A stretch of 64,000 bases of DNA from Candidatus Scalinduaceae bacterium (GTDB lineage: Bacteria; Planctomycetota; Brocadiia; Brocadiales; Scalinduaceae): NCBI GenBank assembly GCA_046759445.1, contig JBHICG010000008.1, positions 1-64,000 on the forward strand, given 5' to 3'. Of this stretch, positions 4,007 to 49,832 are shown one piece after another (within the stretch, counting starts at the first letter, position 1; every line of letters begins with the position of its first letter). The notes under the pieces are model-generated. The model did not search any database, was not told where the DNA came from, and was given only the letters and a program-made list of their open reading frames with translations. The position numbers were made by a program, and so were the translations under genes.

Positions 4007-4696
4007 TTATTCTTTATTATTTTCTAGCAAATCAGGCCTTCTTTCAAGTGTCCTCATAATGGCGTTTTTCGTTTGCCATTCTTCAATTTTTCGATGGTTA
4101 CCTGACTTAAGCACTTCAGGAACTTCCATCCCCCTGAACTCAGCAGGTCTTGTGTACTGCGGATATTCTAATGTTTTATTCATAAAGGACTCGTTTTGCA
4201 ATGACCTGTTTCCACCTAAAACACCCGGGATCAATCTTACAATTGCATCTATTATAACCATTGCTGGTATTTCTCCACCGGTAAGTACATAATCACCTAT
4301 AGAAATTTCTGAGACATCTAAACCAATTCTTATTCTTTCATCAAATCCTTCATAGTGTCCGCAAATTATCATCAAACGAGTCTCTTTTGACAGATTGTTG
4401 GCAATTTCCTGGTTAAAAGTTTTTCCTTGTGGTGTTAATAATATTTTTTTAGATATTATATTATCTTGTATTTCTACTGCCTCAACGGCATTAAATAGAG
4501 GTTCCGGTTTTATAATCATACCAGCGCCACCGCTATAGGGTTTATCATCTACACATTTATGCTTGTCATTTGTGAAATCTCTTATGTTATGCAAATAATA
4601 ACTCACCAGTTTCTTTTCCTGCGCAATCTTCAATATACTTCTTCCCAGCACATTATGAAACATCTCTGGAAATAAAGTCAAGGTATCTATTCTCAT
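4007..4696 (-). CDS. trmD: tRNA (guanine37-N1)-methyltransferase
   Basis: TLFPEMF, CGHYEGFDER, SIGDYVLTGGE, LEYPQYTRP. Confidence 0.97.
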   Translation of the reverse strand: MRIDTLTLFPEMFHNVLGRSILKIAQEKKLVSYYLHNIRDFTNDKHKCVDDKPYSGGAGMIIKPEPLFNAVEAVEIQDNIISKKILLTPQGKTFNQEIANNLSKETRLMIICGHYEGFDERIRIGLDVSEISIGDYVLTGGEIPAMVIIDAIVRLIPGVLGGNRSLQNESFMNKTLEYPQYTRPAEFRGMEVPEVLKSGNHRKIEEWQTKNAIMRTLERRPDLLENNKE

Positions 4697-4704
4697 AAGG
4701 ACAC

Positions 4705-4962
4705 TTATTTCTTAAATGGTATTTTATTTTTTTTGAGAATGCTTCCCACAGTCTCAGTTGGTTTAGCACCCACACTAAGCCAGTATTCGATTCTTTCTCT
4801 TTTTAATACTACTTTCTTGGAATCTTCTTTCTCCATTGGGTCGTACGTACCTAATTGTTCGATACTTTTGCCATCACGTTTTTCTCGAGCATCAAAAGCG
4901 CATATTCTGTAAAAAGGTCTATTCCTTCTTCCCATCCTTTTTAACCTTATCCTTACTGCCAT
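4705..4962 (-). CDS. rpsP: 30S ribosomal protein S16
   Basis: MAVRIRLKRMGRRNRPFYRI...YWLSVGAKPTETV. Confidence 0.97.
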   Translation of the reverse strand: MAVRIRLKRMGRRNRPFYRICAFDAREKRDGKSIEQLGTYDPMEKEDSKKVVLKRERIEYWLSVGAKPTETVGSILKKNKIPFKK

Positions 4963-32921: not shown

Positions 32922-33917
32922 ATGGCTGGAAAACTTGCCTACGAAAGATATTATTGGTTTCATAATCAGGTAAAGGACAACAAACATCCCAATTCAAGAC
33001 ATCTTGCCGATGAATTCGAAATCTCCCAAAAAACCGCTCAAAGAGACATAGAATTCATGAGGGATAGGATTGATGCACCACTTGAATATTCCCATGCTGA
33101 TAGAGGCTATTATTATACTGATGAAGCCTATGAGTTACCACCCATCTGGTTGCGTGAAAGTGAACTTGTCGCCTTTATCCTGGCCAAAAGGCTGGCCACA
33201 GCGATACCGGACAGAAGTATAAAAGATTCATTAAACAAATTCATAAGTAAGTTTTCCTCACGAATTTCAGATAAAACTTGTGGTGAGCGGAGCGAATCCA
33301 TAAGATTTTATCTGGATGATATTCAAGACAAGATATCTCTGAAAAACATAGAATATTATTCTGTCGATGAGGACTTATTTAGAAAGGTTGTGAATGCGCT
33401 TTTTACCAAAAGATCTTTAGCGATTCAATATTATTCTCCACATAAAGATGAAAGAACGAATAGAAATATAATTCCCCTTCATCTACTTGACTATATGGGC
33501 AACTGGCACCTGATATCATTTTGTACGCTAAAGAAAGGACTCAGAAACTTTGCACTTTCAAGAATAGAAGAGTGTAATTATATTGACGAGGAAATATCAC
33601 TTCCAACCGACCTGCCGCCAATAAAGACCTACATACGTAAAACTTTTGGAATATTCCACGGAGGACAAAACCATAATGTATCACTCAAATTCTCTCCCAG
33701 GGCATCCAGAGCTGTGAAAGAACAGATATGGCATAAAAAACAGAAGATAAAAGAACTTAAAGACGGATGCATTATACTAAATGTTCCGGTTGCGGATACT
33801 ACTGAAATCAAAAGAGAAATCCTGAAATATGGCTCAGAAGTAGAGGTCCTTAAGCCTTTAAGATTAAAGAATGAGATAATTGAAGAGATAAAAAAAATGA
33901 AGAAAATTTATCAGTAG
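32922..33917 (+). CDS. HTH-WYL-WCX transcriptional regulator
   Basis: HTH KTAQRDIEFMRD; WYL core PLHL..YMGNWHLI...LRNFALSRI; WCX ILKYGSEVEVLKP. ATG at 32922 preferred as start. Confidence 0.93.
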   Translation: MAGKLAYERYYWFHNQVKDNKHPNSRHLADEFEISQKTAQRDIEFMRDRIDAPLEYSHADRGYYYTDEAYELPPIWLRESELVAFILAKRLATAIPDRSIKDSLNKFISKFSSRISDKTCGERSESIRFYLDDIQDKISLKNIEYYSVDEDLFRKVVNALFTKRSLAIQYYSPHKDERTNRNIIPLHLLDYMGNWHLISFCTLKKGLRNFALSRIEECNYIDEEISLPTDLPPIKTYIRKTFGIFHGGQNHNVSLKFSPRASRAVKEQIWHKKQKIKELKDGCIILNVPVADTTEIKREILKYGSEVEVLKPLRLKNEIIEEIKKMKKIYQ

Positions 33918-34582
33918 GACACTATTTGGGGGAGTAGGTATGGGATAAGAGTATTTAGTTTAAACAGTTTAAAACGTTCAAATCGCTTAAACAGTTTGAG
34001 CAGTTTGAACAATTTTAAAAAGGAGGGGGGGAAAGATGAGTGCAAGATATTTTGAAGATTTAGAAGTCTGGATACTCTCAAGAGAATTAACGAATAAAAT
34101 CTACAATGTAAGCAATGACGGTAGATTCGCAAAAGATTTCGGACTCCGTGATCAGATAAGAAGAGCTGCTGTTTCCATTATGTCAAACATTGCAGAAGGA
34201 TATGAAAGGGGCGGCAATCAGGAATTTATTCAGTTTTTGTCAATAGCCAAAGCCTCATGTGGAGAGGTGCGGTCACAGTTGTACGTCGCCATGGATCAAA
34301 GTTATGTTGGCAAAACAAAGTGTGAACAATTAATAGACGAATTTAAGAAACTCTCCATCATGATTAACAACTTTATCGAATATCTAAAAGGTAGCAGATA
34401 TAAAGGAATAAAGTATAAAAACAAAACGGTTTAAACCGCTTAAACCGTTTAAACGGCTCGAACGGTTCTTTAAGAGAATTGGGCAGAAACTATACTAAAT
34501 ATGTTTTGAGCAAAAAGAGTGTAAGTGTTTGTGATTAGTGAAAGAAATCCCCCATTTTCTTCACTTGCACATTCACTTACAC
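33888..34582 (+). repeat. Segmental duplication, copy 1
   Basis: Near-identical to 35421-36157. Includes the last WYL codons, the four-helix-bundle gene and its flanks. Confidence 0.92.
34036..34434 (+). CDS. Four helix bundle protein (TIGR02436 / 23S-IVS family), copy 1
   Basis: FEDLEVW...[22 protein letters not shown]...[16 protein letters not shown]. Confidence 0.93.
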
Positions 34583-34706
34583 ATTTTATATGAGCGAAAG
34601 CAGAGTTATTTAGACTTGTTATTAGCCTTGTGAATGGATAACATAAACGGCTAAAGCTGAATTAATAGAGCAATGAGCTATAATAAGATTTAAGGAGGTG
34701 ATTAAT

Positions 34707-34973
34707 ATGGTGATTATTGATAAGGAAAAAGTAAAAGATATGTATTATGCCAATATGATGTGTGAGTATCACAAGGTAACGGAAAAGATCAGACTTTTCA
34801 CAAGAAAATACTCGATGTCATTTGAACATTTTGAAAAGAACATAAAAGGATCTGAGAAAGAAGACTTTGAAAGGTGGGATGATTATATGGAATGGAAAGG
34901 GTATGAAAAAGTCTTACAGAATCTGATCAAAGAAAAGAAGGAGCTGGAAGTTGGAGATTATAAAGTGTCTTGA
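34707..34973 (+). CDS. Putative antitoxin partner of the DUF6516 protein
   Basis: AAGGAGGT RBS; KYSMSFEHFEK...EDFERWDDYMEWK motif; overlaps the next gene. Confidence 0.65.
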   Translation: MVIIDKEKVKDMYYANMMCEYHKVTEKIRLFTRKYSMSFEHFEKNIKGSEKEDFERWDDYMEWKGYEKVLQNLIKEKKELEVGDYKVS

Positions 34974-35286
34974 AAAAAGTAGTGCAGTCAAAGATTTTAA
35001 AATTCTAGTCCTTGAGTATTTTGAAGGCGGTTTCTACATAAGAATTAAAGTCACATTGAATAACAATACTGAACTGTACATAAGGGAATACTCTGACGTT
35101 AATGTACGAAACTATTCATATCACTGGCAAGAACCAAATCAGAAGTTATTGATCAGATGGGACAACTCAGCACATCACAAACATATTGAAACATATCCAC
35201 ATCATATTCATCATAGTAATAATGTCTTACCAAGTTATCAAATCTCTTGCGAGGAAATATTAAAGATAATTGAAGAGAAAATCTGA
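34951..35286 (+). CDS. DUF6516 (TumE-like) putative toxin
   Basis: YSYHWQ...LIRWDNSAHH...TYPHHIH. Confidence 0.8.
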   Translation: MEIIKCLEKSSAVKDFKILVLEYFEGGFYIRIKVTLNNNTELYIREYSDVNVRNYSYHWQEPNQKLLIRWDNSAHHKHIETYPHHIHHSNNVLPSYQISCEEILKIIEEKI

Positions 35287-35334
35287 GCAAAAAGAAGTTG
35301 AATACTTTTACCGGAAACAATGGAGGTCACAAAA

Positions 35335-35424
35335 ATGATACAAGAATTTATGAATTATCTAAATAACTCCAAAACTCACAAATCCTCCATCTCTTTAACT
35401 CTAAAGCTGAAACAGACGAAATAA
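35335..35424 (+). pseudogene. Truncated 5' gene fragment at the duplication junction
   Basis: GGAGGT RBS plus ATG gives a 29-aa ORF that ends where duplication copy 2 begins. Confidence 0.35.
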
Positions 35425-36157
35425 AAAAAATGAAGAAAATTTATCAGTAGGACACTATTTGGGGGAGTGGGTATGGGATAAAGTATTTCTGTTTAAACAG
35501 TTCAAACGGTTAAAACAGTTTAAACGGTTTTAACTTTTTTGTTAGTTAAACCGCTTGAACAGTTTGAACAATTATAAAAAGGAGGTGGGAAAGATGAGTG
35601 CAAGATATTTTGAAGATTTAGAAGTCTGGATACTCTCAAGAGAATTAACGAATAAAATCTACAATGTAAGCAATGACGGTAGATTCGCAAAAGATTTCGG
35701 ACTCCGTGATCAGATAAGAAGAGCTGCTGTTTCCATTATGTCAAACATTGCAGAAGGATATGAAAGGGGCGGCAATCAGGAATTTATTCAGTTTTTGTCA
35801 ATAGCCAAAGCCTCATGTGGAGAGGTGCGGTCACAGTTGTACGTCGCCATGGATCAAAGTTATGTTGGCAAAACAAAGTGTGAACAATTAATAGACGAAT
35901 TTAAGAAACTCTCCATCATGATTAACAACTTTATCGAATATCTAAAAGGTAGCAGATATAAAGGAACAAAGTATAAAAAGTCAAAAAATAAAATGGTTTA
36001 AACGGTTTAAACCGCTTAAACCGTTTAAACGGCTCGAACGGTTCTTTAAGAGAATTGGGCAGAAACTACACGGAAAATGTTTTGAGTAAAAAGAGTGTAA
36101 GTGTTTGTGATTAGTGAAAGAAATCCCCCATTTTCTTTACTTCACTCACACTTACAC
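35421..36157 (+). repeat. Segmental duplication, copy 2
   Basis: Near-identical to 33888-34582; differences are concentrated in the micro-repeat flanks. Confidence 0.92.
35594..36001 (+). CDS. Four helix bundle protein, copy 2
   Basis: Same protein as 34036-34434 except the last few residues; AGGAGG RBS before ATG 35594. Confidence 0.93.
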
Positions 36158-36519
36158 TAATTTCTGATTTTTGCATGAAGAACTAGAGAAATTAAAGAGC
36201 CCCCTTTAAAAAGAGGGGATTTAGGGGTGTGTTCCGATGAGAAAGAACTAAGGAGTGGCTGAAGATTGGACAAAAGAAGTTTTAATAGATTTAATTAAAT
36301 AAGATGTGTATGTGCATTGTGAAAGTAAATTACTTACCTAGTATCTGACTTCTGTGTTCTGTTGTCTGTCTTTTGATCACTTACACTTGTTTTTATGATG
36401 TATGAACCCCCAATGCTTCCTTGCCAAAAGTAGGCTCTGTAAGAGCGGAAGCAAGGAATGGGGGTGGATTTTTCGGGAATATGTATAAAAACAAAACATA
36501 GTTTCATTGCTATAAATAA

Positions 36520-38826
36520 ATGTTAAAAGATATTAAACAACTTACAGAATTATATTTGCATTCTAATGGTTTATTGCCAGAAGACAAATCATGGAGTGAT
36601 TTTCACGACGAACTGGTTCAAAATGCATCCAAAGATGCTATTGGACTTCTTGCGGATGCTAACCCGAAAGATAAATGTAAGTATGCATTGTTTATTGATA
36701 TAGATACTCAAAATAAAAATTGTAATGTCAAATATAAGGGCTTTGATAATTTTGTGGAAATCGAAAAAGTAGATGATTGGTCAAGTCATCTATTTTGGCA
36801 AGGGTCAGGTGGAGCTCAGAGCGACAAAATCAGGAACACACCACATAAATTCTTCGATGTTAAAGGTAAATTTTCTTCAAATAAACTTTTTGAGCCATTA
36901 CAAATGATATTAGATAATTACTGCCAAGTTCAAGAGGGTAAAGGCAAGAATAAAAAATATAAAGAAACTGGCCCACTGTTTTGGGATAAAGACAAAAACA
37001 ATGAGAGTAAATTGCTTAAGAATATAGTGAATATTTTGAGCAAGAATAAAGATGAAGTGAATAAACTTGTAAAGGGTGACGAGAAAAGCAAACCAAAAAT
37101 ACTAGGTAAATTTCCTTCGTTGAAACAGGGCGAGTCTGTTTTTGTTGGTTTAACCATTGACGGAAAACCAATTGGAGAATATGAATTATTTAGACGATAT
37201 TTGTTATTTGTAAGAATAAGGGTAGGCATTCAAAAAGGGGCAGATAAGTTTAAATATAAGTTTTTCCCAGAGGTAAGTAGAGAATTGGGTATATGCCCTT
37301 CATGTCATAGGAATAAGCCTCTTTTAGACCAGTGGCAGGGTACAGCCGAATTATCTTTTTACCAGACAACTAATGAGAATCACCTCTCATATGCGTTTCC
37401 TGAATCAGCTTTTACATTCTGTCAAAGCTGTGCAGATTTGCTATTCATTTTCAAACAGCATTTACTTGAAGTCTTAACTCGAAAGTTGGGTGGTAATCAG
37501 TGCCTTATCTTACCATCTATTAAACTGATTCCTTCAGATCAGAATGAAAAGAGAAGGCTTCTTGAAAATTTAAAAGATTTATGGGATTTATCTAGTAGCG
37601 ATATTCAATCTAAAGAAAAGAGATTGTTATATAGACTCGGACAATTGCCGTCATATGCTACCGTAACATTTATCTTCGGTGATTATATTACTGTTGGCAA
37701 ATCTCAAAATGTGAGGAGGCTGGATGAGCTTAATATTATCTTCCCTGATGTTCTACCAAGTAGGCTTTCACAAATAGCAGGTGCAATACAGGAAACTAAC
37801 ACATACTTAAGTGCGATGTGGTCTTTAACAAGCAGAGATTGGAATTGTACATGGTATGTCAGGGATGATTTTCATTTGCTTCAAAATTTATTCCATCCAT
37901 CATGGGATGAAGATAAAAAGAATAAAGACAGGAATAGAAAACAATATAAAAGTTTGAGACGGCCGGAAATAGAACGATATCTAAGATCAATCTTTTATGG
38001 ACAAGAGATTTCATATTGTGAAATAGCAGATGATTGCTATTCAAACCTTTTGTCAGCCTTCAAAATAAGCAGAAGTAGCAGTAAAGATGATAACAACAGA
38101 TATACGTTATCTAATTACATAGGGGACGTTCTATCTTTAATGGTTTTTATTAGTGAATTGAAAGATTTAGATCCCAATAAGGAGGTAGAAGATATGACGG
38201 AAAATAAAGAATTTGAACTTACAGCTATGCCGGAGCTGGGTAAGTTTGTTGAGATGCATCCTTTATTTAAGGATAGTCAATATCTTGCACCGTTTTTTGT
38301 CGGCTGTTTGTTCTCGTATGCAGAAAACCTGCAGAAAGATAATAGCAGGTTGGCAGCGTACAATTGGCTAGGGACAATGACCTTGACATATGATGATATT
38401 TTGCAAGATGTTTACCACAAGACTCTAAAATACATTAAAAGTAGACCCAAGAAAGAAAGTATCATATCAAGTCCACGTCTTCAAGAACTTATTAAAGCAA
38501 TTGCTTATTATGATAAAGGACGATGTGATAATGATAGAGTTGCATTGACGGCTTTTTGTCATGGGTGGTCTGTTGGACGAAGTTTTATTATGAAAAAAAA
38601 TATTGTTAAAGCGATCAAGAAGAAAATAAATGAACTTAAAATTCAAATGAACGATGAAATCAAGAAATTTTTGGAAGCGAATAAAGAAAAAATAAACGCC
38701 AATGACAGTCAAATATTGGATGATTTTTTGAAGCTTATCCCTGAAACTCAACAGCCTGAAATATCATCAATCTGGCAAAAGTCTAAAGAAAATAAAATTG
38801 ACGAAGGAGGAGAATACAATGAGTAA
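36520..38826 (+). CDS. cas8b: Type I-B large subunit Cas8b (Csh1/TM1802-like)
   Basis: First gene of the cas7-cas5-cas3 block; Zn-finger CPSC...FYQT...CQSC; helical C-terminus. Confidence 0.8.
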   Translation: MLKDIKQLTELYLHSNGLLPEDKSWSDFHDELVQNASKDAIGLLADANPKDKCKYALFIDIDTQNKNCNVKYKGFDNFVEIEKVDDWSSHLFWQGSGGAQSDKIRNTPHKFFDVKGKFSSNKLFEPLQMILDNYCQVQEGKGKNKKYKETGPLFWDKDKNNESKLLKNIVNILSKNKDEVNKLVKGDEKSKPKILGKFPSLKQGESVFVGLTIDGKPIGEYELFRRYLLFVRIRVGIQKGADKFKYKFFPEVSRELGICPSCHRNKPLLDQWQGTAELSFYQTTNENHLSYAFPESAFTFCQSCADLLFIFKQHLLEVLTRKLGGNQCLILPSIKLIPSDQNEKRRLLENLKDLWDLSSSDIQSKEKRLLYRLGQLPSYATVTFIFGDYITVGKSQNVRRLDELNIIFPDVLPSRLSQIAGAIQETNTYLSAMWSLTSRDWNCTWYVRDDFHLLQNLFHPSWDEDKKNKDRNRKQYKSLRRPEIERYLRSIFYGQEISYCEIADDCYSNLLSAFKISRSSSKDDNNRYTLSNYIGDVLSLMVFISELKDLDPNKEVEDMTENKEFELTAMPELGKFVEMHPLFKDSQYLAPFFVGCLFSYAENLQKDNSRLAAYNWLGTMTLTYDDILQDVYHKTLKYIKSRPKKESIISSPRLQELIKAIAYYDKGRCDNDRVALTAFCHGWSVGRSFIMKKNIVKAIKKKINELKIQMNDEIKKFLEANKEKINANDSQILDDFLKLIPETQQPEISSIWQKSKENKIDEGGEYNE
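38194..38826 (+). CDS. cas11: Internally translated small subunit Cas11 (in frame within cas8b)
   Basis: TAAGGAGGT followed 7 nt later by an in-frame ATG (MTENKEF...FFVGCLF). Confidence 0.7.
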   Translation: MTENKEFELTAMPELGKFVEMHPLFKDSQYLAPFFVGCLFSYAENLQKDNSRLAAYNWLGTMTLTYDDILQDVYHKTLKYIKSRPKKESIISSPRLQELIKAIAYYDKGRCDNDRVALTAFCHGWSVGRSFIMKKNIVKAIKKKINELKIQMNDEIKKFLEANKEKINANDSQILDDFLKLIPETQQPEISSIWQKSKENKIDEGGEYNE

Positions 38827-40201
38827 CAATTCAACTTTATCTAACAGGCATGAGACATTATTTTTGTGGGAGGTCAGAAAAAGTAATCCCAATGGTGATC
38901 CAAGTGGAAATGAGCCACGTATAGACAGGCATACAAAGAGATGTGATGTAACTGATGTATGTATTAAAAGATCAGTTAGAGATTATATCAGTGTAAGAGA
39001 AGGACTTGATTCTTTATTGGTTACTAAACTTGGAACCGATTTGTCTGAAACCGTGCGTGTTACTGACAGAATAATAGTTTATCTGTTTGGCACTCCGAAA
39101 AAAACAGAGGAGTCTAAAAAATTAGTTGAGACAACAATTGCTGACAGATTAGATAAAGATAAAGAACCATACAAATCATTTCTTGAAAAAACCCCATCTT
39201 CAGCTACTTTGAAAGCTCTTATAAGTAACAAAAGAGAAGATAAGGAAAAGCTTAAAAAAATCGTAAAAGAAAATACACCAGTTGACAGTATCCAGAGAGA
39301 CTTAATAAAAACTTTACGCTCATTTCTATGTGGTACTTTTAAAGATTTAAGAATGTTTGGAAGTGTTCTTGCCTTAGAGGATGATTTAAAAGCTTTAGGC
39401 GGAGATTTGACCGGTCCAATCCAGATAGAAGTTGGAACATCTTTACATCGTGTAGTGCATTCTAATAAGCAAATCACTAGTGTTATGGGTAGTAAAGAAG
39501 AACATGAAGCAGGAATAATTGGTGATACACATTGCATTGAATACGGTCTTTTTGCTACAAGCGCTATTGCTAATGAGAATGCAGCAAGGTTTACAGGGCT
39601 TGCTGATATAGACCATGAATTGTTCTTAAAGGCTTTATGGCGTGGAACTCGTGACAGGCACACGCGAAGCAAGAATCAGGTACCAAGATTGTTGATTGAT
39701 ATTGAATATAACAAACCTTTCCATTTTGGGGATCTCGTTAATAGCGTCAAATTAAATCCAGTTGAGAGGAGTGGGAAACTACTTGACGAGGAAGCTTATA
39801 GAAGCATTGATGATTTTACAATGGATTTAACAAAGTTTTATGAAAAGATTAATTCCAAAAATGAAGCCATAAAATCTATAAAATTTGCTTCAAACGGACT
39901 TATAACTTTAGACGAGTTGAAAAATAAACTTAATAATGATTTAAAGGATAAAGTCTGTGAAATTTCTGGTATTGATTTTGATTCAACAATAGAGATTGAG
40001 GTCAATGATTTTAGCGAAGATGCTAAAATGGTAATAGAAGGGGTTAAGGGAATCACATATTGCGAACCAAATAAAATAATCACTATTACAACAGGTTTAA
40101 CGGAGGATATGTTTAAAAAGATTATTGAAAAACAAGCATTACAACCTTATAAAGATGCCCTCCAAAAAGCTTATAATTCGCTAAAGGAAAAATTGAAATG
40201 A
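38819..40201 (+). CDS. cas7: Type I-B Cas7 (Csh2-like), enlarged
   Basis: SNPNGDP...PRID...VTDVCIKRSVRDY, DLRMFG, TGPIQ, TRSK; AGGAGG RBS before ATG 38819. Confidence 0.9.
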   Translation: MSNNSTLSNRHETLFLWEVRKSNPNGDPSGNEPRIDRHTKRCDVTDVCIKRSVRDYISVREGLDSLLVTKLGTDLSETVRVTDRIIVYLFGTPKKTEESKKLVETTIADRLDKDKEPYKSFLEKTPSSATLKALISNKREDKEKLKKIVKENTPVDSIQRDLIKTLRSFLCGTFKDLRMFGSVLALEDDLKALGGDLTGPIQIEVGTSLHRVVHSNKQITSVMGSKEEHEAGIIGDTHCIEYGLFATSAIANENAARFTGLADIDHELFLKALWRGTRDRHTRSKNQVPRLLIDIEYNKPFHFGDLVNSVKLNPVERSGKLLDEEAYRSIDDFTMDLTKFYEKINSKNEAIKSIKFASNGLITLDELKNKLNNDLKDKVCEISGIDFDSTIEIEVNDFSEDAKMVIEGVKGITYCEPNKIITITTGLTEDMFKKIIEKQALQPYKDALQKAYNSLKEKLK

Positions 40202-40911
40202 AAGTTTTGTTTTTCTTAATGCATGGCCGGTTTGCCCATTTTTGTGCGCCATATACGAATGTTTACAGGTTGACTCAGCCATGCCCTACGAAAACAGCAA
40301 TAATGGGCTTTATAGGTTCAGTATTAGGCATTGAAAAGGACGACTTGATCCTTTATCAAGAAATTCAATGCGGTTTAGAGATATGTAGTGAATATAGAAC
40401 GGTTTCTATGCCGTATCTCACCCGTCAAGGATTTCCTGGAAGTGCAGCAAACAAAGAGTCTTCAAGAACATCTGTAGAAGTAATAGTTAATCCTAAATAC
40501 AGAATATATATCACTGGGAATAGCGAATTACTTCTAAAAATTCACGATTTGATGATTCAGCAGAAGCCTGTCTTTACCCCCTATCTTGGACTTGCTCAAT
40601 TTATAGCCAGCACGGATTTTCAGATTTCAGAACTTGTTGAAGGAGAATTAACAGAAGGGGTTGATTTAGCAGCAAAGGGTGCTTTTATGAGGGAGGTTCA
40701 CGGAGAATTGGATTTTGAAAAAATCAACACTCTATCCAAAGAATGCAAGCTGAGGATAACTGAATTTGAAGGATTATGCGACATTAAACCTCCTAGAGAT
40801 TTTGAGCATGCAGTTTTTACAGTAAATCTGGATGGCGGTACGGTCCCGCTTATAAATACGAAGGATATTTTGAAAATACCTGCATGGAATAAAAATGTGC
40901 CAATTTTCTGA
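40198..40911 (+). CDS. cas5: Cas5
   Basis: GRFAHF...PTKTAIMGFIGSVLG...PKYRIY...PYLG. Confidence 0.9.
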   Translation: MKVLFFLMHGRFAHFCAPYTNVYRLTQPCPTKTAIMGFIGSVLGIEKDDLILYQEIQCGLEICSEYRTVSMPYLTRQGFPGSAANKESSRTSVEVIVNPKYRIYITGNSELLLKIHDLMIQQKPVFTPYLGLAQFIASTDFQISELVEGELTEGVDLAAKGAFMREVHGELDFEKINTLSKECKLRITEFEGLCDIKPPRDFEHAVFTVNLDGGTVPLINTKDILKIPAWNKNVPIF

Positions 40912-43249
40912 TATAAAATCACATCCCGATTTACTCCTTGAAAAACATTTAACACAGGTCGCTGACATTGCAGTTGACCTTCTTGAAAATAAACAAGTAT
41001 GTTTCCCATCTCTTAGCCTTACAAAAGAACACTTAAAAGAACTTGTTAAAAGGGCTGCACTGTTCCATGATTTAGGCAAGGCAACAACATATTTTCAAGA
41101 AAGATTAAAGACGGGTAAGAAATGGCCAAATGGCGAACATCAACATACTGGACTATCTGCCTTGCTTGCATATAAGCCTCTTATAACATACTGCATAGAA
41201 AATAATTTGGATAATTCAATTGCATTGGCTCCATTAATGGCAGTGCAGTTTCATCATTCCGGATTCAAAAAAGAATTTCCAAATGATTCGGCAATGGATG
41301 CTCGTTTAAAAGAATTTAAGAAAGAATTTTTGACTTTACAAACTTTAAAAGATGTGGGGATGACTAATGAGGTAATCTCAATAGACCCGATTAAAGTAGA
41401 TTGTGGTTTTGAAAACCTTTTTTCAGATATGTCAGCTTTTAGTGATGAGCAAAAAATTGAGTTTCGCTTATTGTTTTTATTTATCTTTTCTCTTTTATTA
41501 GAGGCAGACAAGGCATATCTTGCGGTAAAAAACAAGGAATTATACCAGCGGAAACCCGTAAAAATTGATCCTATAGTTATTGATAATTATAAAGCTAAAG
41601 TATTTAAAAATAAAAATGCAAAGATAAACAATGACAGGGAGAAGGCTTATAAAGAAGTTTTGACTGGGTTGAATGCTCTTGATTTGAATAATCATATATA
41701 TAGGCTTACTCTCCCTACAGGTATGGGCAAGACCTTATTGGCTGCATCATGGGCAATTAAGCTACGAAATAAAATGCAAAATGAACTCGGTATTACTCCA
41801 CAAATTATTACGACATTACCGTTTCTCTCAATTATTGACCAGACGGCAAAGGCATATGAGGAATTTCTCAACAATCCTGATGAAGAGATGTTTCTTAAGA
41901 CTCATTCCCTTTCATCTTTTGATTTCAATGGTTATGAAGCCAATACAGCAGAATTTTTTGTAAATATATGGAAATCACAAATTGTGATGACCACTTTTGA
42001 CCAATTATTGTATGCCTTTTTCAGCGATAAGCCGAAGCATCTTATGAGATTTCATAACCTTTTAAATAGCATAATCATTATGGACGAAGTACAAGCATTG
42101 CCACCACATCTTTGGCACCCGTTTTCGACTTTTATTAGATACATAACTGATTTAGGCAAAAGTCACCTATTGCTTATGTCTGCAACGCAACCTCAAATAA
42201 TAGATTCAGCAATAGAGCTAGTGCCTTCTGTATCTGAGAATAATGAAATCAAGGGGGCTGAAAGATTTTTTGAGAAACTATCCAGATATAAGTTGCTATT
42301 GAAACATCAAGACAGTAAAAGCATAGATGAATTTATCAGTGAGATGAGAGATAGACTTTCTAAGATGGATGAAGACAAGATTATGGTCGTTCTTAACACA
42401 CGCGATTCAGCCAAGCAAGTTTATGAAAATCTTAAAGATGTTGCAAAGGACAGAGAGACTTATTTTCTTTCATCATATGTGATTCCTTTTGAGCGATTGG
42501 ATAGAGTTGAGAGGATTAAGAATTCAAAACGAGCATTAGTTATAACTACTCAATGCATTGAAGCAGGGGTGGATATTGATATGGATTATGTAATCCGCGA
42601 CTTTGGACCCTTGGATTCAATTATTCAGGTTGCCGGAAGATGCAACAGGGAAGGCGAAAAAGCAATGCGGACGGTTGAAATTGTAAGATTATATGATCCT
42701 GAGGCAAAAAGTAGATTTTGTCCGAGTGGAGAATTCAATGCAATGGTTTATGATCAACTTGCTATTAATGCAACCGCTGACATATTTGGTAAAAGCAAGG
42801 AAATTTCAGAAAATCAAATTTTCGACCTGGCAATAAAATATTTTAATGAACTAAAGCGTAAGGATTTGGGCAAGAATAGAACAGAATGCCTCTTAGATTT
42901 TTCTCATAAATATCTGAAGAATGGAAGGCAGCATAAATTTGATATAAAGTCAGAACTGAGAGGAGAATTGAAACAGTATAATTTAATAGTTGATAAATAT
43001 GCTTCTGAGTTGAAAAAAGAAATAGAACAGATTTTTAAGGAAGATATAGACCGATGGGTACGGAGAAGAAAATTAAAAGAACTTTCTAGTAAGATTTCAA
43101 TGAGCTCTATATCCGTAAATGCTTACAAGTTTAATCCAGACGATATAGCAGACAAGGGTAAAGGCGACTTTTATTTCTTAGAGTCAAGATATTACGATGA
43201 TGAGATTGGATTTAACTACAGGACTCCATTAGGAACAATTATAATATGA
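40895..43249 (+). CDS. cas3: Cas3 HD nuclease-helicase
   Basis: HL..V, FHDLGK, LPTGMGKT, DEVQ, SAT, IEAGVDID, QVAGRCNR. Confidence 0.95.
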   Translation: MCQFSDIKSHPDLLLEKHLTQVADIAVDLLENKQVCFPSLSLTKEHLKELVKRAALFHDLGKATTYFQERLKTGKKWPNGEHQHTGLSALLAYKPLITYCIENNLDNSIALAPLMAVQFHHSGFKKEFPNDSAMDARLKEFKKEFLTLQTLKDVGMTNEVISIDPIKVDCGFENLFSDMSAFSDEQKIEFRLLFLFIFSLLLEADKAYLAVKNKELYQRKPVKIDPIVIDNYKAKVFKNKNAKINNDREKAYKEVLTGLNALDLNNHIYRLTLPTGMGKTLLAASWAIKLRNKMQNELGITPQIITTLPFLSIIDQTAKAYEEFLNNPDEEMFLKTHSLSSFDFNGYEANTAEFFVNIWKSQIVMTTFDQLLYAFFSDKPKHLMRFHNLLNSIIIMDEVQALPPHLWHPFSTFIRYITDLGKSHLLLMSATQPQIIDSAIELVPSVSENNEIKGAERFFEKLSRYKLLLKHQDSKSIDEFISEMRDRLSKMDEDKIMVVLNTRDSAKQVYENLKDVAKDRETYFLSSYVIPFERLDRVERIKNSKRALVITTQCIEAGVDIDMDYVIRDFGPLDSIIQVAGRCNREGEKAMRTVEIVRLYDPEAKSRFCPSGEFNAMVYDQLAINATADIFGKSKEISENQIFDLAIKYFNELKRKDLGKNRTECLLDFSHKYLKNGRQHKFDIKSELRGELKQYNLIVDKYASELKKEIEQIFKEDIDRWVRRRKLKELSSKISMSSISVNAYKFNPDDIADKGKGDFYFLESRYYDDEIGFNYRTPLGTIII

Positions 43250-43929
43250 AAATATTGAGTTGTGTTGTCCGGTTGTATTTTGATAATTCAACTGACGATC
43301 TAGATATTCAATCTAAAGACCTGCGTGGCGCTATTGCATACCTTTATCCCAATGAAATACTTCTTCATCAACATTTGGAAGATGGCACACTGAAATATAA
43401 TTATCCTATTGTTCAATACAAATATGTTAATAAGAAATGCCTTATTGTAGGCATTGAAAAAGGAGCAAAGGTTATTAATAATCTAAATTTGATCGGAGAA
43501 ATAATTATATTGTCTCATCAAAAATATAAGATTTTAAAAAAAGATATAATGTTTCAAGAATCATCATATAGCACAACAAAGAAAATGGTATCTTATTCTT
43601 TACTAACCCCCTGGCTAGCGTTGAATGAGAAGAATTATGAGAAATATCAAAAACTAGGAAGTTGGCAGAAAAGGAAAGAGCTTTTGTGTAAAATTCTCAT
43701 TGGTAATATTATTTCCATGTCAAAGAGTTTGGGATATACCGTGCCAGAAGCAATCATGGCAAACATTAGTAAACTCGAAGAAGTTCGAACATCTTTAAAG
43801 GGCACTCCAATGCTAGGATTCCTAGGCACTTTCTCCGTAAACTTCGAGATACCTGATTACTGGGGGATTGGTAAATCGGTGTCAAGGGGGTTTGGGACGA
43901 TTAAGCGAGTTGATGGGTTTAATCGTTGA
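43246..43929 (+). CDS. cas6: Cas6 (Cas6b-like) endoribonuclease
   Basis: YNYPIVQYK, TPWLALN, LIGNIISMSK and glycine loop GIGKSVSRGFG. Confidence 0.9.
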   Translation: MKILSCVVRLYFDNSTDDLDIQSKDLRGAIAYLYPNEILLHQHLEDGTLKYNYPIVQYKYVNKKCLIVGIEKGAKVINNLNLIGEIIILSHQKYKILKKDIMFQESSYSTTKKMVSYSLLTPWLALNEKNYEKYQKLGSWQKRKELLCKILIGNIISMSKSLGYTVPEAIMANISKLEEVRTSLKGTPMLGFLGTFSVNFEIPDYWGIGKSVSRGFGTIKRVDGFNR

Positions 43930-43959
43930 AGAAATGAATTTCCAGATCAGGAAATTGTC

Positions 43960-44469
43960 ATGCAAAATATGGAAGTTATACCCCAACAAGCAATCGAAAG
44001 TAAGATATACATCATTAGAGGCAGAAAGGTGATGTTGGACAGAGACCTGGCAATTCTTTATGCAGTTGAAACGAAAATGCTCAATCGCGCTGTCAAAAGA
44101 AATGTAGAACGTTTTCCAGAAGACTTTATGTTTCAATTGACGAAAAAAGAATACGTTGAACTTTTAAGGTGCCAATTTGGTACCTTAAAAAGAGGACAGC
44201 ACAGTAAATATCTTCCATATGCTTTTGCAGAAAACGGCGTGGCAATGCTATCAAGCGTCTTGAATAGTCAGAGAGCTATACAGGTAAATATTCAAATTAT
44301 GAGAACGTTTACAAAAATCAGGGAAATGCTTGCTACACATAAAGAATTAAAACAAAAGATTGAAGAAATGGAAAAGAAATACGATTATCAATTTAAGGTT
44401 GTTTTTGACGCTATAAAACAGTTAATAGAACCTCCGAAGAAATCCAGAAAAAGGATAGGTTTTAAGTAA
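43960..44469 (+). CDS. ORF6N domain DNA-binding protein
   Basis: [44 protein letters not shown]. Confidence 0.9.
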
Positions 44470-44486
44470 AAAACGATGTAATAATA

Positions 44487-44717
44487 TTGTTAAATATTAG
44501 ATCAGATATTAGAGTAGATAAAATGTTTGGACCACCTAAAAACATAGAAGGACAATGTAATGCACATTGTTATATTGCAGATGATTACAGAGATAATCAT
44601 GCAACAATAAGATGTCAGCTTCTGCCAAATCATAAGGGTAAGTATAAAGAAGTTAGTCGAGAAGGAAAATTAATAATCGAATGGGAAGAAGATGAAAGAG
44701 AACGTGAGTCAGCTTGA
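44487..44717 (+). CDS. Small hypothetical Cys/His protein
   Basis: CNAHC...HATIRC.L...H; co-oriented inside the cas operon. Start may be the internal ATG (MFGPP). Confidence 0.55.
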   Translation: MLNIRSDIRVDKMFGPPKNIEGQCNAHCYIADDYRDNHATIRCQLLPNHKGKYKEVSREGKLIIEWEEDERERESA

Positions 44718-44842
44718 ACTGTTTAAACTGCTGAAACGGAGTGTAAGTGTATGTGGTCAGTGAAAGTAAATTACTTACAGCTTTCACCTACACTCTTCAC
44801 TTACACTATAAATCTAACATCTATATTCTATTTCTAAAAACC

Positions 44843-45814
44843 ATGCAACTCGTAATCAACACTTACGGTTCTTATCTTCGAAAGAAGGAAGGTTGCTTCC
44901 TTGTTAAAAATGAGGATGGTGAGTTCGACGTATCTGTAAAAAAGGTGGATAGTATTATGATTACGACAAGTTCTTATCTTTCCACTGACGCAATAAAGAT
45001 GGCAATGGATAATAACATTGACGTTATCTTCCTTGATGATTATGGAGACCCTTACGGCAGGGTGTGGCATTCAAAACTTGGAAGTACCGTTGCAATAAGA
45101 CGCAAACAACTGGAAATGACATCTAACGAAAAAGGCCTGAATATGGCCAAGGAATGGATAATAGCAAAACTAGACAATCAGATTGAGTTCCTTACTAAAC
45201 TAAAAAACTCAAGACCAGAAAAAGAGTCCAAATTAAATGAATATAGTTCAAGACTGGGAGAAACAAAGGAAAAATTGGGAAAACTGACAGGTACAATTGA
45301 TGAAAAAAGAAACACAATAATGGGACTCGAAGGTTCTGCAGGCAGGACTTATTTTGAAGCCATTAATTACGTCATGCCAGATAGATATAAATTCGATGGA
45401 AGAAGTAAGCAACCAGCAAAGGATGAATTTAATTGTCTCCTCAACTACGGATATGGTGTCCTTTATTCAATAGTTGAAAAGGCGTGCATTATAGCAGGAC
45501 TCGATCCTTACGTTGGTTTCGTTCACACTGATAATTATAATAAGAAATCACTCGTATTCGACCTGATAGAGATGTTTAGAATTTTTGTAGACCAGACGGT
45601 TGTCTATCTCTTCAGTCAAAGGCAAGTAAAACAGGAGTATTTTGACAAAATAAAGAATGGATTGACTCTGAATAAAGAAGGAAAGGCTGTGCTGATAGAG
45701 GCGCTTAATAAGACCTTTGACAAGAGTGTCAGGTACAAGGGAAGAAATATAAAGAATAAAAATATAATTCAGTTTGAGTGCCATGCGATAGCGAATGGGA
45801 TTATCAAGTGTTAG
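44843..45814 (+). CDS. cas1: Cas1
   Basis: MQLVINTYGSYL, MGLEG.A...YF, LNYGYG.LY, GLDPYVGF.H, LVFDLIE.FR. Confidence 0.95.
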   Translation: MQLVINTYGSYLRKKEGCFLVKNEDGEFDVSVKKVDSIMITTSSYLSTDAIKMAMDNNIDVIFLDDYGDPYGRVWHSKLGSTVAIRRKQLEMTSNEKGLNMAKEWIIAKLDNQIEFLTKLKNSRPEKESKLNEYSSRLGETKEKLGKLTGTIDEKRNTIMGLEGSAGRTYFEAINYVMPDRYKFDGRSKQPAKDEFNCLLNYGYGVLYSIVEKACIIAGLDPYVGFVHTDNYNKKSLVFDLIEMFRIFVDQTVVYLFSQRQVKQEYFDKIKNGLTLNKEGKAVLIEALNKTFDKSVRYKGRNIKNKNIIQFECHAIANGIIKC

Positions 45815-45897
45815 TATAAGTAAATGGTGTAAGTGATAGGTGAAAGTGTAAGTGAATCGTATCGTTTAAGTGTATAGTGATAAGAAGGGAGATAGAG

Positions 45898-46269
45898 ATG
45901 AATGTTGATATCAAAAGTGTTGAGGATCTGGATGTTTTCAAAATGGCTCATGAACTGGTATTGAAAATATATAAGATTACAAAAAAGTTTCCTGACGAAG
46001 AGAAGTTTGGTTTAGTTTCACAAATGAGAAGAGCTGTATCATCAGTACCCATGAATTTAATGGAAGGTGGACACCGTCTTTCTTCAAAAGAGTACCGTCA
46101 ATTTGCAGGCATAGCGAACGGTTCTATAGGTGAATTTAAATATCATATACTTTTATCTAAAGACCTCAAATATCTATCAAACGATATTTACCATGAATTA
46201 AGAAATACAGCAGAAGAAATTAGCAAGATGTTAATGGGATTAATAAAATCCCTTTCAAAGAAGCAGTAA
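45898..46269 (+). CDS. Four helix bundle protein, copy 3 (divergent), between cas1 and cas2
   Basis: EDLDVFK...FPDEEKFGLVSQMRRAVSSVPMNLMEG...IANGSIGE. Confidence 0.92.
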   Translation: MNVDIKSVEDLDVFKMAHELVLKIYKITKKFPDEEKFGLVSQMRRAVSSVPMNLMEGGHRLSSKEYRQFAGIANGSIGEFKYHILLSKDLKYLSNDIYHELRNTAEEISKMLMGLIKSLSKKQ

Positions 46270-46373
46270 ATTTCGTTTTTTAGAAATGAAAGAATTTCTG
46301 TCTATAGAATTTAACTATAACCTAAAGGCATATTCACCAATACTTACACTTACACCGAACACATACACTATAA

Positions 46374-46667
<294 letters not shown>

Positions 46668-46767
46668 TGAAAGTGTTTTGTGTAAGTGTCAGTGATTTTA
46701 CTTACACACATACGCTTATTATTACAACTTCACTTTCACTCTTACACTTACACCTACACTATCAGAA

Positions 46768-47385
46768 ATGAATACGGCAGAAACACAAGGAATTTATGTT
46801 ACACCATCCGAGGTAATAGAGTATCTATATTGTCCGAGGTTTATTTATTTTATGAACTGCCTCTGTATTCCCCAGCATGAGGAACAAAGATATAAGGTAA
46901 TTAAAGGCAGGGAATTACACGATGAGAGAAAGAATATAAATAAGTCTTATCTGCGAAAAAAATTGAAATGTGTCGAAAAGGATATAGATGTCTATATGTC
47001 TTCTGATAAATATCATTTAAAGGGTGTGGTGGACGAAGTTTTGTACCTTGAAGATGGGACATTGGCGCCATTAGACTATAAGTTTGCTGAATATCGTGAA
47101 ACGCTTTTTAAGACGCACAAGTATCAGTCGGTTCTATATGCAATCTTGATTAAAGAAAATTACAAGAAAAACGGTTCAGACAATATTGAAGTAAAGAAGG
47201 GTTTTGTTTGTTACACTAGAAGCAAAAATTTAATAAAGGAAATCAAGTATAGCGAAAAGGATTTCAAGATGGCCACAAATGCTATATCGGAGACTCTGAA
47301 TATAATACAAAGTGGCCACTATCCGAAAAAGACCAGATATTTATCAAAATGTATTGATTGCTGCTATAGAAATATCTGTGTATAA
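46768..47385 (+). CDS. cas4: Cas4
   Basis: YCPR, G..D, PLDYK, Q...YA and C-terminal CxxCxYxxxC. Confidence 0.95.
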   Translation: MNTAETQGIYVTPSEVIEYLYCPRFIYFMNCLCIPQHEEQRYKVIKGRELHDERKNINKSYLRKKLKCVEKDIDVYMSSDKYHLKGVVDEVLYLEDGTLAPLDYKFAEYRETLFKTHKYQSVLYAILIKENYKKNGSDNIEVKKGFVCYTRSKNLIKEIKYSEKDFKMATNAISETLNIIQSGHYPKKTRYLSKCIDCCYRNICV

Positions 47386-47707
47386 ATTAGCTCTCTTCGG
47401 TGGCTAATTTTTTTAAATCGCAAATAAAAATACGTGTAGGGTGGGGTGGATCTACTAACAAGCAGATAATAAGGCAATACAATTACTTAGTGAACTTCTA
47501 AAAGACATAAATGATGTTAATTTATAATACTTTTGTGTAGTTAACAACGTAAACATTTGTTATTAAATGGTATAAGAATTGGGAAACCATGTAACGTAGT
47601 TAAAAAAGGATTGATTTATGACAAAAAAGCAAAGGGAATTACTGGAAATAATGCTTTCTAAAAGAATATCAAGTTGTAATGTTTACTACCCTTGCACAAA
47701 AAGTGCG
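47386..47707 (+). promoter_or_regulatory. CRISPR leader
   Basis: AT-rich non-coding stretch between cas4 and the first repeat; the degenerate repeat is at the far end of the array. Confidence 0.7.
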
Positions 47708-49832
47708 GTATGAATAGTTAATCCATTAAAACAAGGATTGAAACTTGTAGGCGCCGCATAAAGTTTTAAAATTTGTTTCGTATGAATAGTTAATCCATTA
47801 AAACAAGGATTGAAACTCAGGAGGATGGCAGAGTCGTTGACTACGTCCTCATGGTATGAATAGTTAATCCATTAAAACAAGGATTGAAACACGCACGTGT
47901 GGCAATGAGAGACCAGACTGCATATAGTATGAATAGTTAATCCATTAAAACAAGGATTGAAACTGTATCTGAAATTCTTAGTGGTAAGAGAGATATATCG
48001 TATGAATAGTTAATCCATTAAAACAAGGATTGAAACGTGATTCAGGGATTATCAATTCCTCAATTCTTTAATTTGTATGAATAGTTAATCCATTAAAACA
48101 AGGATTGAAACTGTCATGAGGACTGCCCCAAGAGGCCACGACTTCATGTATGAATAGTTAATCCATTAAAACAAGGATTGAAACGATATCTTCCTTGCGA
48201 TCATAAACGCCACGCCGTTAAGTATGAATAGTTAATCCATTAAAACAAGGATTGAAACGACAATAATATGACATTGCTTTCACCCCCTTCATGAGTATGA
48301 ATAGTTAATCCATTAAAACAAGGATTGAAACTGAATGCTGATTACGCATTCTCAAACTACATATATGTATGAATAGTTAATCCATTAAAACAAGGATTGA
48401 AACGATGGAACAAATGACTAGATGGAGTTCGATATCTTTGTATGAATAGTTAATCCATTAAAACAAGGATTGAAACACTGGACTGATCCTGTCACGGATG
48501 CGACTTTAGCTTTGTATGAATAGTTAATCCATTAAAACAAGGATTGAAACTCAAATTGTTTCCCTGTGTAACATTTTGCAATTTGAGTATGAATAGTTAA
48601 TCCATTAAAACAAGGATTGAAACTCTTATTCTGCCATGCATCTTGTTTTGTAACATGAGGTATGAATAGTTAATCCATTAAAACAAGGATTGAAACTAGT
48701 TCTTGTTGGTCAAAAAGGGATAAACCAAGAAAGTATGAATAGTTAATCCATTAAAACAAGGATTGAAACTTTTATAGTGTGATCCCAACTTTCCGTGCTT
48801 TTTATGTATGAATAGTTAATCCATTAAAACAAGGATTGAAACTCTTCACCTTTAAGAGCCGTAATGAACAGGATACGTTGTATGAATAGTTAATCCATTA
48901 AAACAAGGATTGAAACCCCCTTCTATCATCTCTACCTTTTCCTGCATTAAATGTATGAATAGTTAATCCATTAAAACAAGGATTGAAACATATTTGTGCC
49001 AGGCGTTCCTCCTGCATCTATCTGTGTATGAATAGTTAATCCATTAAAACAAGGATTGAAACGCCAACCTCCTAATAATATCTTCAGATTTGAACGATAG
49101 TATGAATAGTTAATCCATTAAAACAAGGATTGAAACCCCAGCGAGGCAAGTCGAGTGTACCCGCTTTCAATTTGTATGAATAGTTAATCCATTAAAACAA
49201 GGATTGAAACTAGACGACCTCTACCGGCAGATCAGCACACATAGATAGTATGAATAGTTAATCCATTAAAACAAGGATTGAAACTGGCATTATCGCACCA
49301 GATTTTAGCTAAATAATCATCGTATGAATAGTTAATCCATTAAAACAAGGATTGAAACTTAATAGATACCTCAATAAATGGGGTGTAGAGAAGAGTATGA
49401 ATAGTTAATCCATTAAAACAAGGATTGAAACGATACTGATATAACGGCATCCGCTTCTACGGAATACGTATGAATAGTTAATCCATTAAAACAAGGATTG
49501 AAACAAAGATTCACTCTTCATCAAATCGTTTTGTTGGTTTTGTATGAATAGTTAATCCATTAAAACAAGGATTGAAACATGTTCCAGAGGGGATGACTAT
49601 CAATGAAATATTCGGTATGAATAGTTAATCCATTAAAACAAGGATTGAAACACAAATCTCCTTGAAACCCTTTCGAAACAGTTTGATGTATGAATAGTTA
49701 ATCCATTAAAACAAGGATTGAAACAATAATCCCTGAATCCCTGAATTCCTAAATTCTTAAAGTATGAATAGTTAATCCATTAAAACCCCAAAAATCACAT
49801 TCGTGACTAACGAAGCGGGCAAGGATTGAAGC
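47708..49832 (+). CRISPR. CRISPR array: 28 intact 37-bp repeats plus 1 split terminal repeat, 28 spacers of ~35-38 bp
   Basis: Repeat GTATGAATAGTTAATCCATTAAAACAAGGATTGAAAC at ~73-bp period. The 3' ATTGAAAC handle gives the orientation. Confidence 0.98.

Follow-up and report, generated by a model that had tools for sequence, protein, structure and literature searches.

Two mutually complementary, octamer-periodic spacers of a type I-B CRISPR array probably derive from a family of palindromic micro-repeat elements

The spacers of clustered regularly interspaced short palindromic repeats (CRISPR) are one of the few natural records of DNA that entered cells as foreign. In a 64,000-nt stretch of DNA from a Candidatus Scalinduaceae bacterium (assembly GCA_046759445.1, contig JBHICG010000008.1, positions 1 to 64,000), which we analysed as a whole and refer to as the window, a type I-B CRISPR array contains two spacers, spacer 5 and spacer 28, that are built from 8-bp units and are partly complementary to each other. 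What kind of DNA gave rise to these two spacers, and why do they match? We consider it likely that both are ordinary type I-B spacers, acquired at different times from two diverged copies of one short palindromic octamer-repeat family. The array and the two spacers are located as follows.

47708..49822, + strand: CRISPR array, with 28 identical 37-nt repeats and 28 spacers of 35-38 nt
48037-48074, + strand: spacer 5 (38 nt), with the units GTGATTCA GGGATTAT / CAATTCCT CAATTCTT TAATTT
49725-49761, + strand: spacer 28 (37 nt), reading A ATAATCCC TGAATCCC TGAATTCC TAAATTCT TAAA

Spacer 28 represents one arm of 4.5 heterogeneous units, with four different units in its 37 nt. In spacer 5, two purine-type units (GTGATTCA GGGATTAT) are followed without a gap by pyrimidine-type units (CAATTCCT CAATTCTT TAATTT). 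The orientation of the units switches in the middle of the spacer, which appears to read across the tip of an octamer hairpin. Both spacers fit one octamer family, with an 8-bp period and units of the form WNAATYCY or its complement. A first-pass annotation of the window had singled them out as periodic 8-mer spacers, and both their sequences and their positions are as it gave them. In no other spacer of the array is 8 the best autocorrelation lag; the lag-8 values of these two are 0.79 and 0.60, and those of the other 26 do not exceed 0.43.

The two spacers share an exact match of 14 nt in inverted orientation, as that annotation had also claimed. This is the longest word common to any pair of spacers in either orientation, and the runner-up is 9 nt long. 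In 300 per-spacer shuffles, the longest shared word ranged from 8 to 13 nt; a word of 13 nt was reached in three shuffles and one of 14 nt in none. Beyond the exact word, 15 of 17 positions agree in inverted orientation. Meanwhile, the 3' halves of the two spacers match in direct orientation at 16 of 18 positions (AATTCCTnAATTCTTnAA; AATTCCTAAATTCTTAAA versus AATTCCTCAATTCTTTAA). Spacer 5 therefore begins as the reverse complement of the first two units of spacer 28 and goes on with the direct counterpart of the last units of spacer 28. There are two differences in the 17-nt inverted overlap and two in the 18-nt direct overlap, and two units are missing. Because they differ at several positions and in the arrangement of their units, their sources are two related but distinct sequences, which bears out the earlier suggestion that the system sampled such elements twice. 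We also considered a single locus in two variants as the source of both spacers. This is possible, but it needs a deletion of 16-19 nt in the arm together with several substitutions, and the guesses at the protospacer-adjacent motif (PAM) disagree.

Each of the two spacers follows an exact repeat, and their lengths of 38 and 37 nt lie within the 35-38 nt range of the array. The 28 exact copies of the 37-nt repeat (47708-49724) carry the 3' end ATTGAAAC and are matched by the Rfam model CRISPR-DR7; at gathering score, the Rfam scan of the window gave nothing beyond tRNA and CRISPR-DR7. Downstream of spacer 28 lies the 5' part of a split terminal repeat. This 29th repeat (49762-49822) consists of the first 25 nt, a 34-nt insert and the last 12 nt with one change, and no repeat lies beyond it. 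The split repeat at the distal end makes spacer 1 the newest and spacer 28 the oldest, and thus spacer 5 comparatively recent. Genes for type I-B Cas7/Csh2, Cas5b, Cas3, Cas1, Cas2 and Cas4 lie upstream of the array on the same strand, together with a leader.

We scanned 185,579 species genomes with a degenerate four-unit pattern derived from the spacer units (AATYCYWN three times, followed by AATYC). The pattern amounts to 42 bits, and about 0.3 chance matches are expected over 596 Gb on both strands. At least 123 stretches match it. The description of the family given below refers to the matches listed. Judged by eye from their titles, about 50 of the 123 stretches belong to Desulfobacterota sensu lato, about 28 to Bacteroidota, six to Planctomycetota and three to Gemmatimonadota, and the rest include Nitrospirota and Verrucomicrobia. 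One family member, L029, lies in a metagenome-assembled genome (MAG) of Candidatus Scalindua. In loci of at least 2 kb, 84 of 89 clusters are located outside long open frames. Mixed units, like those of the spacers, occur in 65 of these 89 clusters, and homogeneous arrays, like those of an Erwinia plasmid considered below, occur in 24. No listed stretch falls in another CRISPR array. The family takes the form 5'-(GGRATTNA)n, a short loop, (TNAATYCC)n-3', and its members are mostly gene-less intergenic hairpins or single arrays.

The arms of the family follow a fixed order. The purine arm precedes the pyrimidine arm at a gap of -4 to 60 nt in 17 loci, and at a gap of 242-531 nt in five more loci on four contigs (L018 and L019 overlap). 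In the reverse order, no two arms lie closer than 1035 nt. Among the 101 arms with enough flank for the test, an inverted partner with a score of at least 12 lies upstream of 33 and downstream of two; at a score of at least 16, the counts are 19 versus 0. Arm order is invariant under reverse complementation, so the polarity is real. Spacer 5 has the same polarity, with the purine-type units first and a gap of zero. In most micro-repeat families that we saw, the 5' arm is purine- or G-rich and the 3' arm C-rich, on either strand (L021 2199-2267, L029 5001-5062, L015 113-232 and 1122-1583). At L096 100-610 and L017 4640-5045, octamer arms enclose 290-310 nt without a four-helix-bundle gene; the enclosed segment is A+T-rich in L096, and G+C-rich and palindromic in L017.

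Several members come close to the spacers. The hairpin of L021 reads ...GGGATTCAGGGATTTAGGAATTTAGGGATT GAT AATCCCTAAATCCCTCAATTCCTCAATTCT..., and its tip, GGGATTGATAATCCC, resembles spacer 5. The Scalindua hairpin L029 has the sequence GAGGGATTCAAGGATTAAGGAATTCAGGAATTCTTAAATCCCTTAATCCCTTAATTCC. L058 and L070 each show five mismatches in 37 positions to spacer 28, and L070 has a 23-nt exact word in common with it. L060 carries the 18-mer at the 3' end of spacer 28, AATTCCTAAATTCTTAAA, exactly, and L052 has 17 nt in common with spacer 5. These four loci are family members and not protospacers. The units of spacer 28 grade from CCC to TTC, and we rejected this gradient as the mark of a conserved subfamily, as the order is found in 8 of 350 matches.

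The neighbours of the octamer hairpins are ordinary genes, toxin-antitoxin genes (PIN, MazE, AbiE) or metabolic operons such as sucC-sucD. At L070 1885-1975, in a Thermodesulfobacteriota MAG, the gap between sucC and sucD holds an octamer array that runs directly into a 9-mer array (CTGCGGAAT-type), so that two unit families meet there. A comparison of eight hairpin loci with Rfam returned only generic microRNA-precursor models, far below threshold. No relevant occurrence of six family 14-mers was found in the searched literature, where two papers with one of these words deal with unrelated subjects; it also yielded no description of the octamer family, nor of unit-specific arms outside ribosomal RNA (rRNA). 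As far as these searches show, a source of this kind is undescribed.

The first-pass annotation had likened the spacers to the micro-repeat arms around four-helix-bundle genes, while holding that their 8-mer family is absent from the rest of the window. Both statements agree with our results. Neither spacer has a further copy in the window at up to 8 mismatches on either strand, and up to 10 mismatches gave nothing but self-shifted matches of spacer 28. Runs of at least two consecutive spacer-family units occur inside spacer 28 only. An autocorrelation scan of the whole window for strongly short-periodic 37-nt stretches gives seven clusters. Four of them are arms of two four-helix-bundle genes (34036-34434 and 35555-36001), one is an arm without a gene between cas2 and cas4, one is A-rich, and one is spacer 28. 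In their build, the spacers agree with the micro-repeat arms of all three four-helix-bundle genes in the window. The micro-repeat elements of the window are the following.

33958..34469, + strand: four-helix-bundle (TIGR02436) cassette, gene 34036-34434, with GTTTAAACN arms of 9-base period
35488..36045, + strand: second four-helix-bundle cassette, open reading frame (ORF) 35555-36001, with GTTTAAACN arms
45812..46373, + strand: four-helix-bundle (TIGR02436) cassette between cas1 and cas2, gene 45877-46269, with inverted GTGTAAGT / ACTTACAC micro-repeat arms
34514-34587 (+ strand), 36089-36163, 44741-44806 and 46662-46765: GTGTAAGT-type hairpins without a gene, the last two between cas genes

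The genes at 34036-34434 and 35555-36001 match TIGR02436 with an E value of about 1e-34. They are near-identical, and the arms of their cassettes are unlike in unit number. In the cassette between cas1 and cas2, the arms (45824-45853 and 46342-46371) are 83% complementary. The gene-less GTGTAAGT-type hairpins have fold z-scores of -3.7 to -6.2, and none of 200 shuffles equals them. Taken together, these scans show that micro-repeat hairpins are dense in the host; they belong to two unit families, with or without a four-helix-bundle gene, and not to the family of the spacers.

On the side of the family, we searched the fetched contigs with an iterated profile built from the three four-helix-bundle proteins of the window. 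Genes of this kind are present in four contigs: two in L015, one in L018 (the same as L019), one in L067 and a fragment in L040. NCBIfam confirms those of L015, L018 and L040, and the assignment of L067 comes from the profile alone. In L018, GGAATTGA-type and AATCCCTC-type arms, which belong to the unit family of the spacers themselves, enclose a TIGR02436 gene (4607-4957, E = 2.5e-27); among the fetched contigs, this locus alone combines the unit family with such a gene. The genes of L015 and L067 sit between inverted arms of other units (TGTAAAA, GGGGAAC and AAATCCGA). All seven complete four-helix-bundle genes (three in the window, two in L015, and those of L018 and L067) have inverted, unit-specific micro-repeat arms. 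It had been asked whether matches to the spacers flank such genes. Among family members, the gene enclosed in L018 is one such case, but most members are gene-less, and only four of the fetched contigs contain the genes. The tight tip of spacer 5 argues that its source, too, was gene-less.

Based on these observations, spacer 28 would come from a stretch of a pyrimidine-type arm, and spacer 5 would run from a purine-type arm over the tip into a pyrimidine-type arm. A palindromic source explains why the two spacers are partly reverse-complementary (the 14-mer) and partly similar in direct orientation (the 3' halves). Their complementarity is a by-product of this source and not a designed pairing of guides. 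We infer that both sources belonged to this family and were carried by invading DNA. As CRISPR RNAs (crRNAs), both spacers would direct Cascade and Cas3 to DNA that bears such an element. Two of 28 spacers seems more than a sequence class this rare should give, which may point to a hot spot or priming rather than luck. The source may have been rich in such elements, breakage of the palindrome may have fed the capture machinery, or the first guide may have primed the second capture.

We searched 50,697 phage records and 72,556 plasmid records for protospacers. Against the phage records, each spacer alone gave E values of at least 0.5 (best E, 0.5-2). Against the plasmid records, spacer 5 had no match better than E = 5, and the best match of spacer 28 was an Erwinia persicina plasmid (E = 3e-3, 88% over 34 nt, at 13 places in the record). 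A search with the complete spacer region (47745-49761) retrieved three irrelevant plasmid matches and, at E up to 1, nothing from the phages. Without a usable protospacer, none of the 28 spacers yields a PAM. A family arm of 101 nt from L096 had no phage or plasmid match, although the low-complexity filter may have masked the arm.

Several points weigh against an origin from this family. There is no actual protospacer in the 64-kb window, the phage records or the plasmid records. Among the at least 123 matches listed, the closest genome stretches show 5 mismatches in 37 positions to spacer 28 and 8 in 38 to spacer 5; the array of the host itself is absent from these matches, and the search pattern itself forced part of the family's likeness to spacer 28. 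The order of its units does not set spacer 28 apart within the family, so that it cannot be traced to one subfamily. The upstream trinucleotides, guessed from flanks of the partner spacer or of L021, differ between spacer 5 (TCA or TTA) and spacer 28 (ATT), which speaks mildly against a single strict PAM, or against the flank guesses. By itself, spacer 5 folds no better than its shuffles (z = 0; 88 of 200 equal it), and we rejected the idea that it is a stable hairpin on its own. Finally, a four-helix-bundle gene is enclosed by the unit family of the spacers in one case among about 75 flanked contigs.

Other origins of the two spacers have to be weighed against this one. One candidate is a plasmid or phage region of the centromere-like or iteron type, with arrays of 8-bp repeats that are bound by a ribbon-helix-helix partition protein of the ParG type. 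The centromeres of TP228-type ParG have an 8-bp period, the best database match of spacer 28 lies on the Erwinia persicina plasmid, and the matching region beside parA and parG holds five different tandem 8-mer arrays, with CTGAATCC occurring about 15 times. However, the Erwinia arrays are long, homogeneous and direct, whereas the two spacers have four to five different units and an orientation switch: spacer 28 alone holds four, and spacer 5 changes orientation in the manner of the chromosomal hairpins. Spacer 5 also lacks a plasmid match of comparable quality, and we saw no partition genes next to the closest family members. We regard a partition-site origin as unlikely. We consider it very unlikely that the source was the end of a linear virus or plasmid of the host, be it a terminal inverted repeat or a hairpin telomere. 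Free DNA ends are hot spots for spacer acquisition, so that such ends could account for two captures near the centre of a palindrome; with its arm mirrored, spacer 28 would begin at or beside such a centre. The genome of Stygiolobus rod-shaped virus opens with (AAATTCCT)n, of the same unit type and period, inside an annotated terminal repeat. On the other hand, the virus matches are not significant (E = 6), rudiviruses infect archaea and not planctomycetes, the same units lie in many bacterial chromosomes far from contig ends, and no linear element was identified.

We give even less credence to a self-derived origin, in which the spacers were taken from octamer hairpins of the host chromosome and are tolerated, serve as regulatory guides, or yield crRNAs that pair with each other. 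A Scalindua MAG does bear a family hairpin (L029), the 14-nt complementarity is real, and other micro-repeat hairpins are dense in the host, with at least four gene-less and three gene-bearing ones in 64 kb. Yet the unit family of the spacers is absent from the window outside the array, though two other unit families are frequent there, and a 14-bp duplex between guides held by Cascade has no known role. Moreover, the cas operon looks intact and includes Cas3, so that a perfectly matching target in the host's own genome should do harm. Chance likeness of two low-complexity, A+T-rich spacers has a practically negligible probability. Shuffles do reach a shared word of 13 nt in three of 300 cases, but none reaches 14 nt; the spacers also have in common the 8-nt period and the second, direct match of 16 in 18 positions, and both fit an external family of hundreds of units. 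The octamer family stays our preferred source for both spacers.

On the Erwinia persicina plasmid (L001 820-1560), the tandem arrays TAATCATG, AATCATTG, CAATCCTG, GCTGAGAT and CTGAATCC are found in one 700-bp unannotated stretch beside parA/parG, which is probably a composite centromere or operator region. At the start of the linear genome of Stygiolobus rod-shaped virus (L125 1-150), we notice about 15 octamers of the (AAATTCCT) type.

Four-helix-bundle proteins were first found in 23S rRNA intervening sequences, and a preprint describes their genes in rRNA insertions of bacteria of the candidate phyla radiation (CPR). For the Coxiella intervening sequence with an S23p ORF, passages of PMC4990558 describe terminal inverted repeats that form a 28-bp stem, and tandem heptamers in variable number upstream of the ORF. 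According to the same passages, RNase III excises the intervening sequence, and its present or past mobility is still debated (PMC4990558). An excerpt of the study by Zhang and Ye reports 18 23S_rRNA_IVP genes within cas loci (PMC3936711).

Our best reading is that the octamer family is related in style to these intervening-sequence elements and has the same architecture as the micro-repeat-armed cassettes. The intervening sequences of Leptospira and Coxiella (Pfam 23S_rRNA_IVP, TIGR02436) are likewise small four-helix-bundle cassettes with terminal inverted repeats as a stem. Beside their ORF lie tandem short repeats of variable copy number, such as the Coxiella heptamers described in those passages (PMC4990558), and the cassettes of the window, L015, L018 and L067 are built in the same way. 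In contrast to intervening sequences, the cassettes described here lie between protein genes and not in rRNA, their arms consist almost wholly of 7-9-bp units with an own unit for each cassette, and the unit family of the spacers is mostly without a gene. By analogy with the rRNA intervening sequences, the hairpins may fold into RNase III-type stems once transcribed.

Other known systems resemble the family in part. The nearest named class is the short tandemly repeated repetitive (STRR) sequences of heterocystous cyanobacteria, which are also dispersed intergenic arrays of very short tandem units. The STRR unit is 7 bp long; the octamer family differs in its period of 8, and STRR sequences have been described for cyanobacteria. 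We know of no description of STRR sequences that includes hairpin polarity or a four-helix-bundle cargo. Repetitive extragenic palindromic sequences and bacterial interspersed mosaic elements (REP/BIME), Correia-type elements and elements resembling miniature inverted-repeat transposable elements (MITEs) are short, multi-copy, intergenic and hairpin-forming as well. MITEs and their parent transposons form gene-less and gene-bearing pairs with the same arms, as is seen here. Unlike all of these, the octamer family builds its arms from arrays of variable units, and we saw no transposase, target-site duplication or fixed consensus. Centromeres of the ParG/ParR type share the tandem 8-bp units, and the Erwinia plasmid even has CTGAATCC, but they are long homogeneous direct repeats beside partition genes, whereas the spacers are heterogeneous and partly inverted. 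The terminal inverted repeats of the rudivirus, at a hairpin-ended genome terminus, have the (AAATTCCT)n units and the 8-bp period in common with the family. However, this virus is archaeal, unlike the host of the spacers, and the match is weak (E = 6); the likeness is probably convergence.

The function and mobility of the S23p or 23S rRNA intervening-sequence four-helix-bundle genes have been unexplained since the 1990s. Unit-specific arms at seven of seven complete genes, together with a gene-less hairpin family spread over several phyla, suggest a common, still unknown way of making and moving cassettes. By analogy, the hairpins may behave as selfish cassettes, some of which carry a four-helix-bundle gene. 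We speculate further, as a possibility that we hold to be doubtful, that the octamer hairpins and their four-helix-bundle relatives are selfish elements of a single class that spreads horizontally: 'autonomous' forms would carry the gene and 'passenger' forms would lack it, with the arms common to both. The array would then be the first immune record of this class, captured twice, with the second capture possibly primed by the first. On this view, such elements would reach cells as invading DNA or be carried by it, and immunity would act against them, even though sister elements are established inside the cas operon. Finding the sources of the spacers would show whether hairpin elements move horizontally and by which vehicle, and whether palindromic micro-repeats are hot spots of capture. 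For annotation, the lesson of the two spacers is that periodicity and mutual complementarity do not by themselves mark spacers as artefacts or regulatory devices.

The array belongs to the following cas operon, whose named genes were assigned by NCBIfam matches.

36520..47385, + strand: type I-B cas operon
36520-38826, + strand: first ORF of the operon, 768 aa
38798-40201, + strand: Cas7 (Csh2)
40198-40911, + strand: Cas5 (Cas5b)
40895-43249, + strand: Cas3
43246-43929 and 43960-44469, + strand: two ORFs between Cas3 and Cas1
44747-45814, + strand: Cas1
46377-46667, + strand: Cas2
46768-47385, + strand: Cas4
47386..47707, + strand: putative leader of 322 nt, from cas4 to the first repeat, by position and its 30% G+C

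The NCBIfam search gave no match for the ORFs at 36520-38826, 43246-43929 and 43960-44469. Their position suggests Cas8b and Cas6 or other subunits. The polarity of the array suggests the leader role of 47386..47707. We notice that the operon is colonised by micro-repeat elements: a GTGTAAGT hairpin precedes cas1, the four-helix-bundle cassette lies between cas1 and cas2, and a hairpin or arm pair lies between cas2 and cas4.

Against proteins that bear the NCBI name Candidatus Scalindua sp., the Ffh protein of the host shows 77-78% identity, and its highest identity to unnamed proteins is 83%. This identity to Scalindua proteins places the host among anammox planctomycetes near Scalindua. Elsewhere, the window carries ordinary chromosomal genes (ffh, murA, ruvB, tgt, secDF and others). 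At 33850-36170, a small module of two genes (34698-34973 and 34951-35286) is enclosed by two four-helix-bundle cassettes, with a GTGTAAGT hairpin after each of them; the gene at 34951-35286, the second of the module, matches the toxin TumE with an E value of 1.6e-11.

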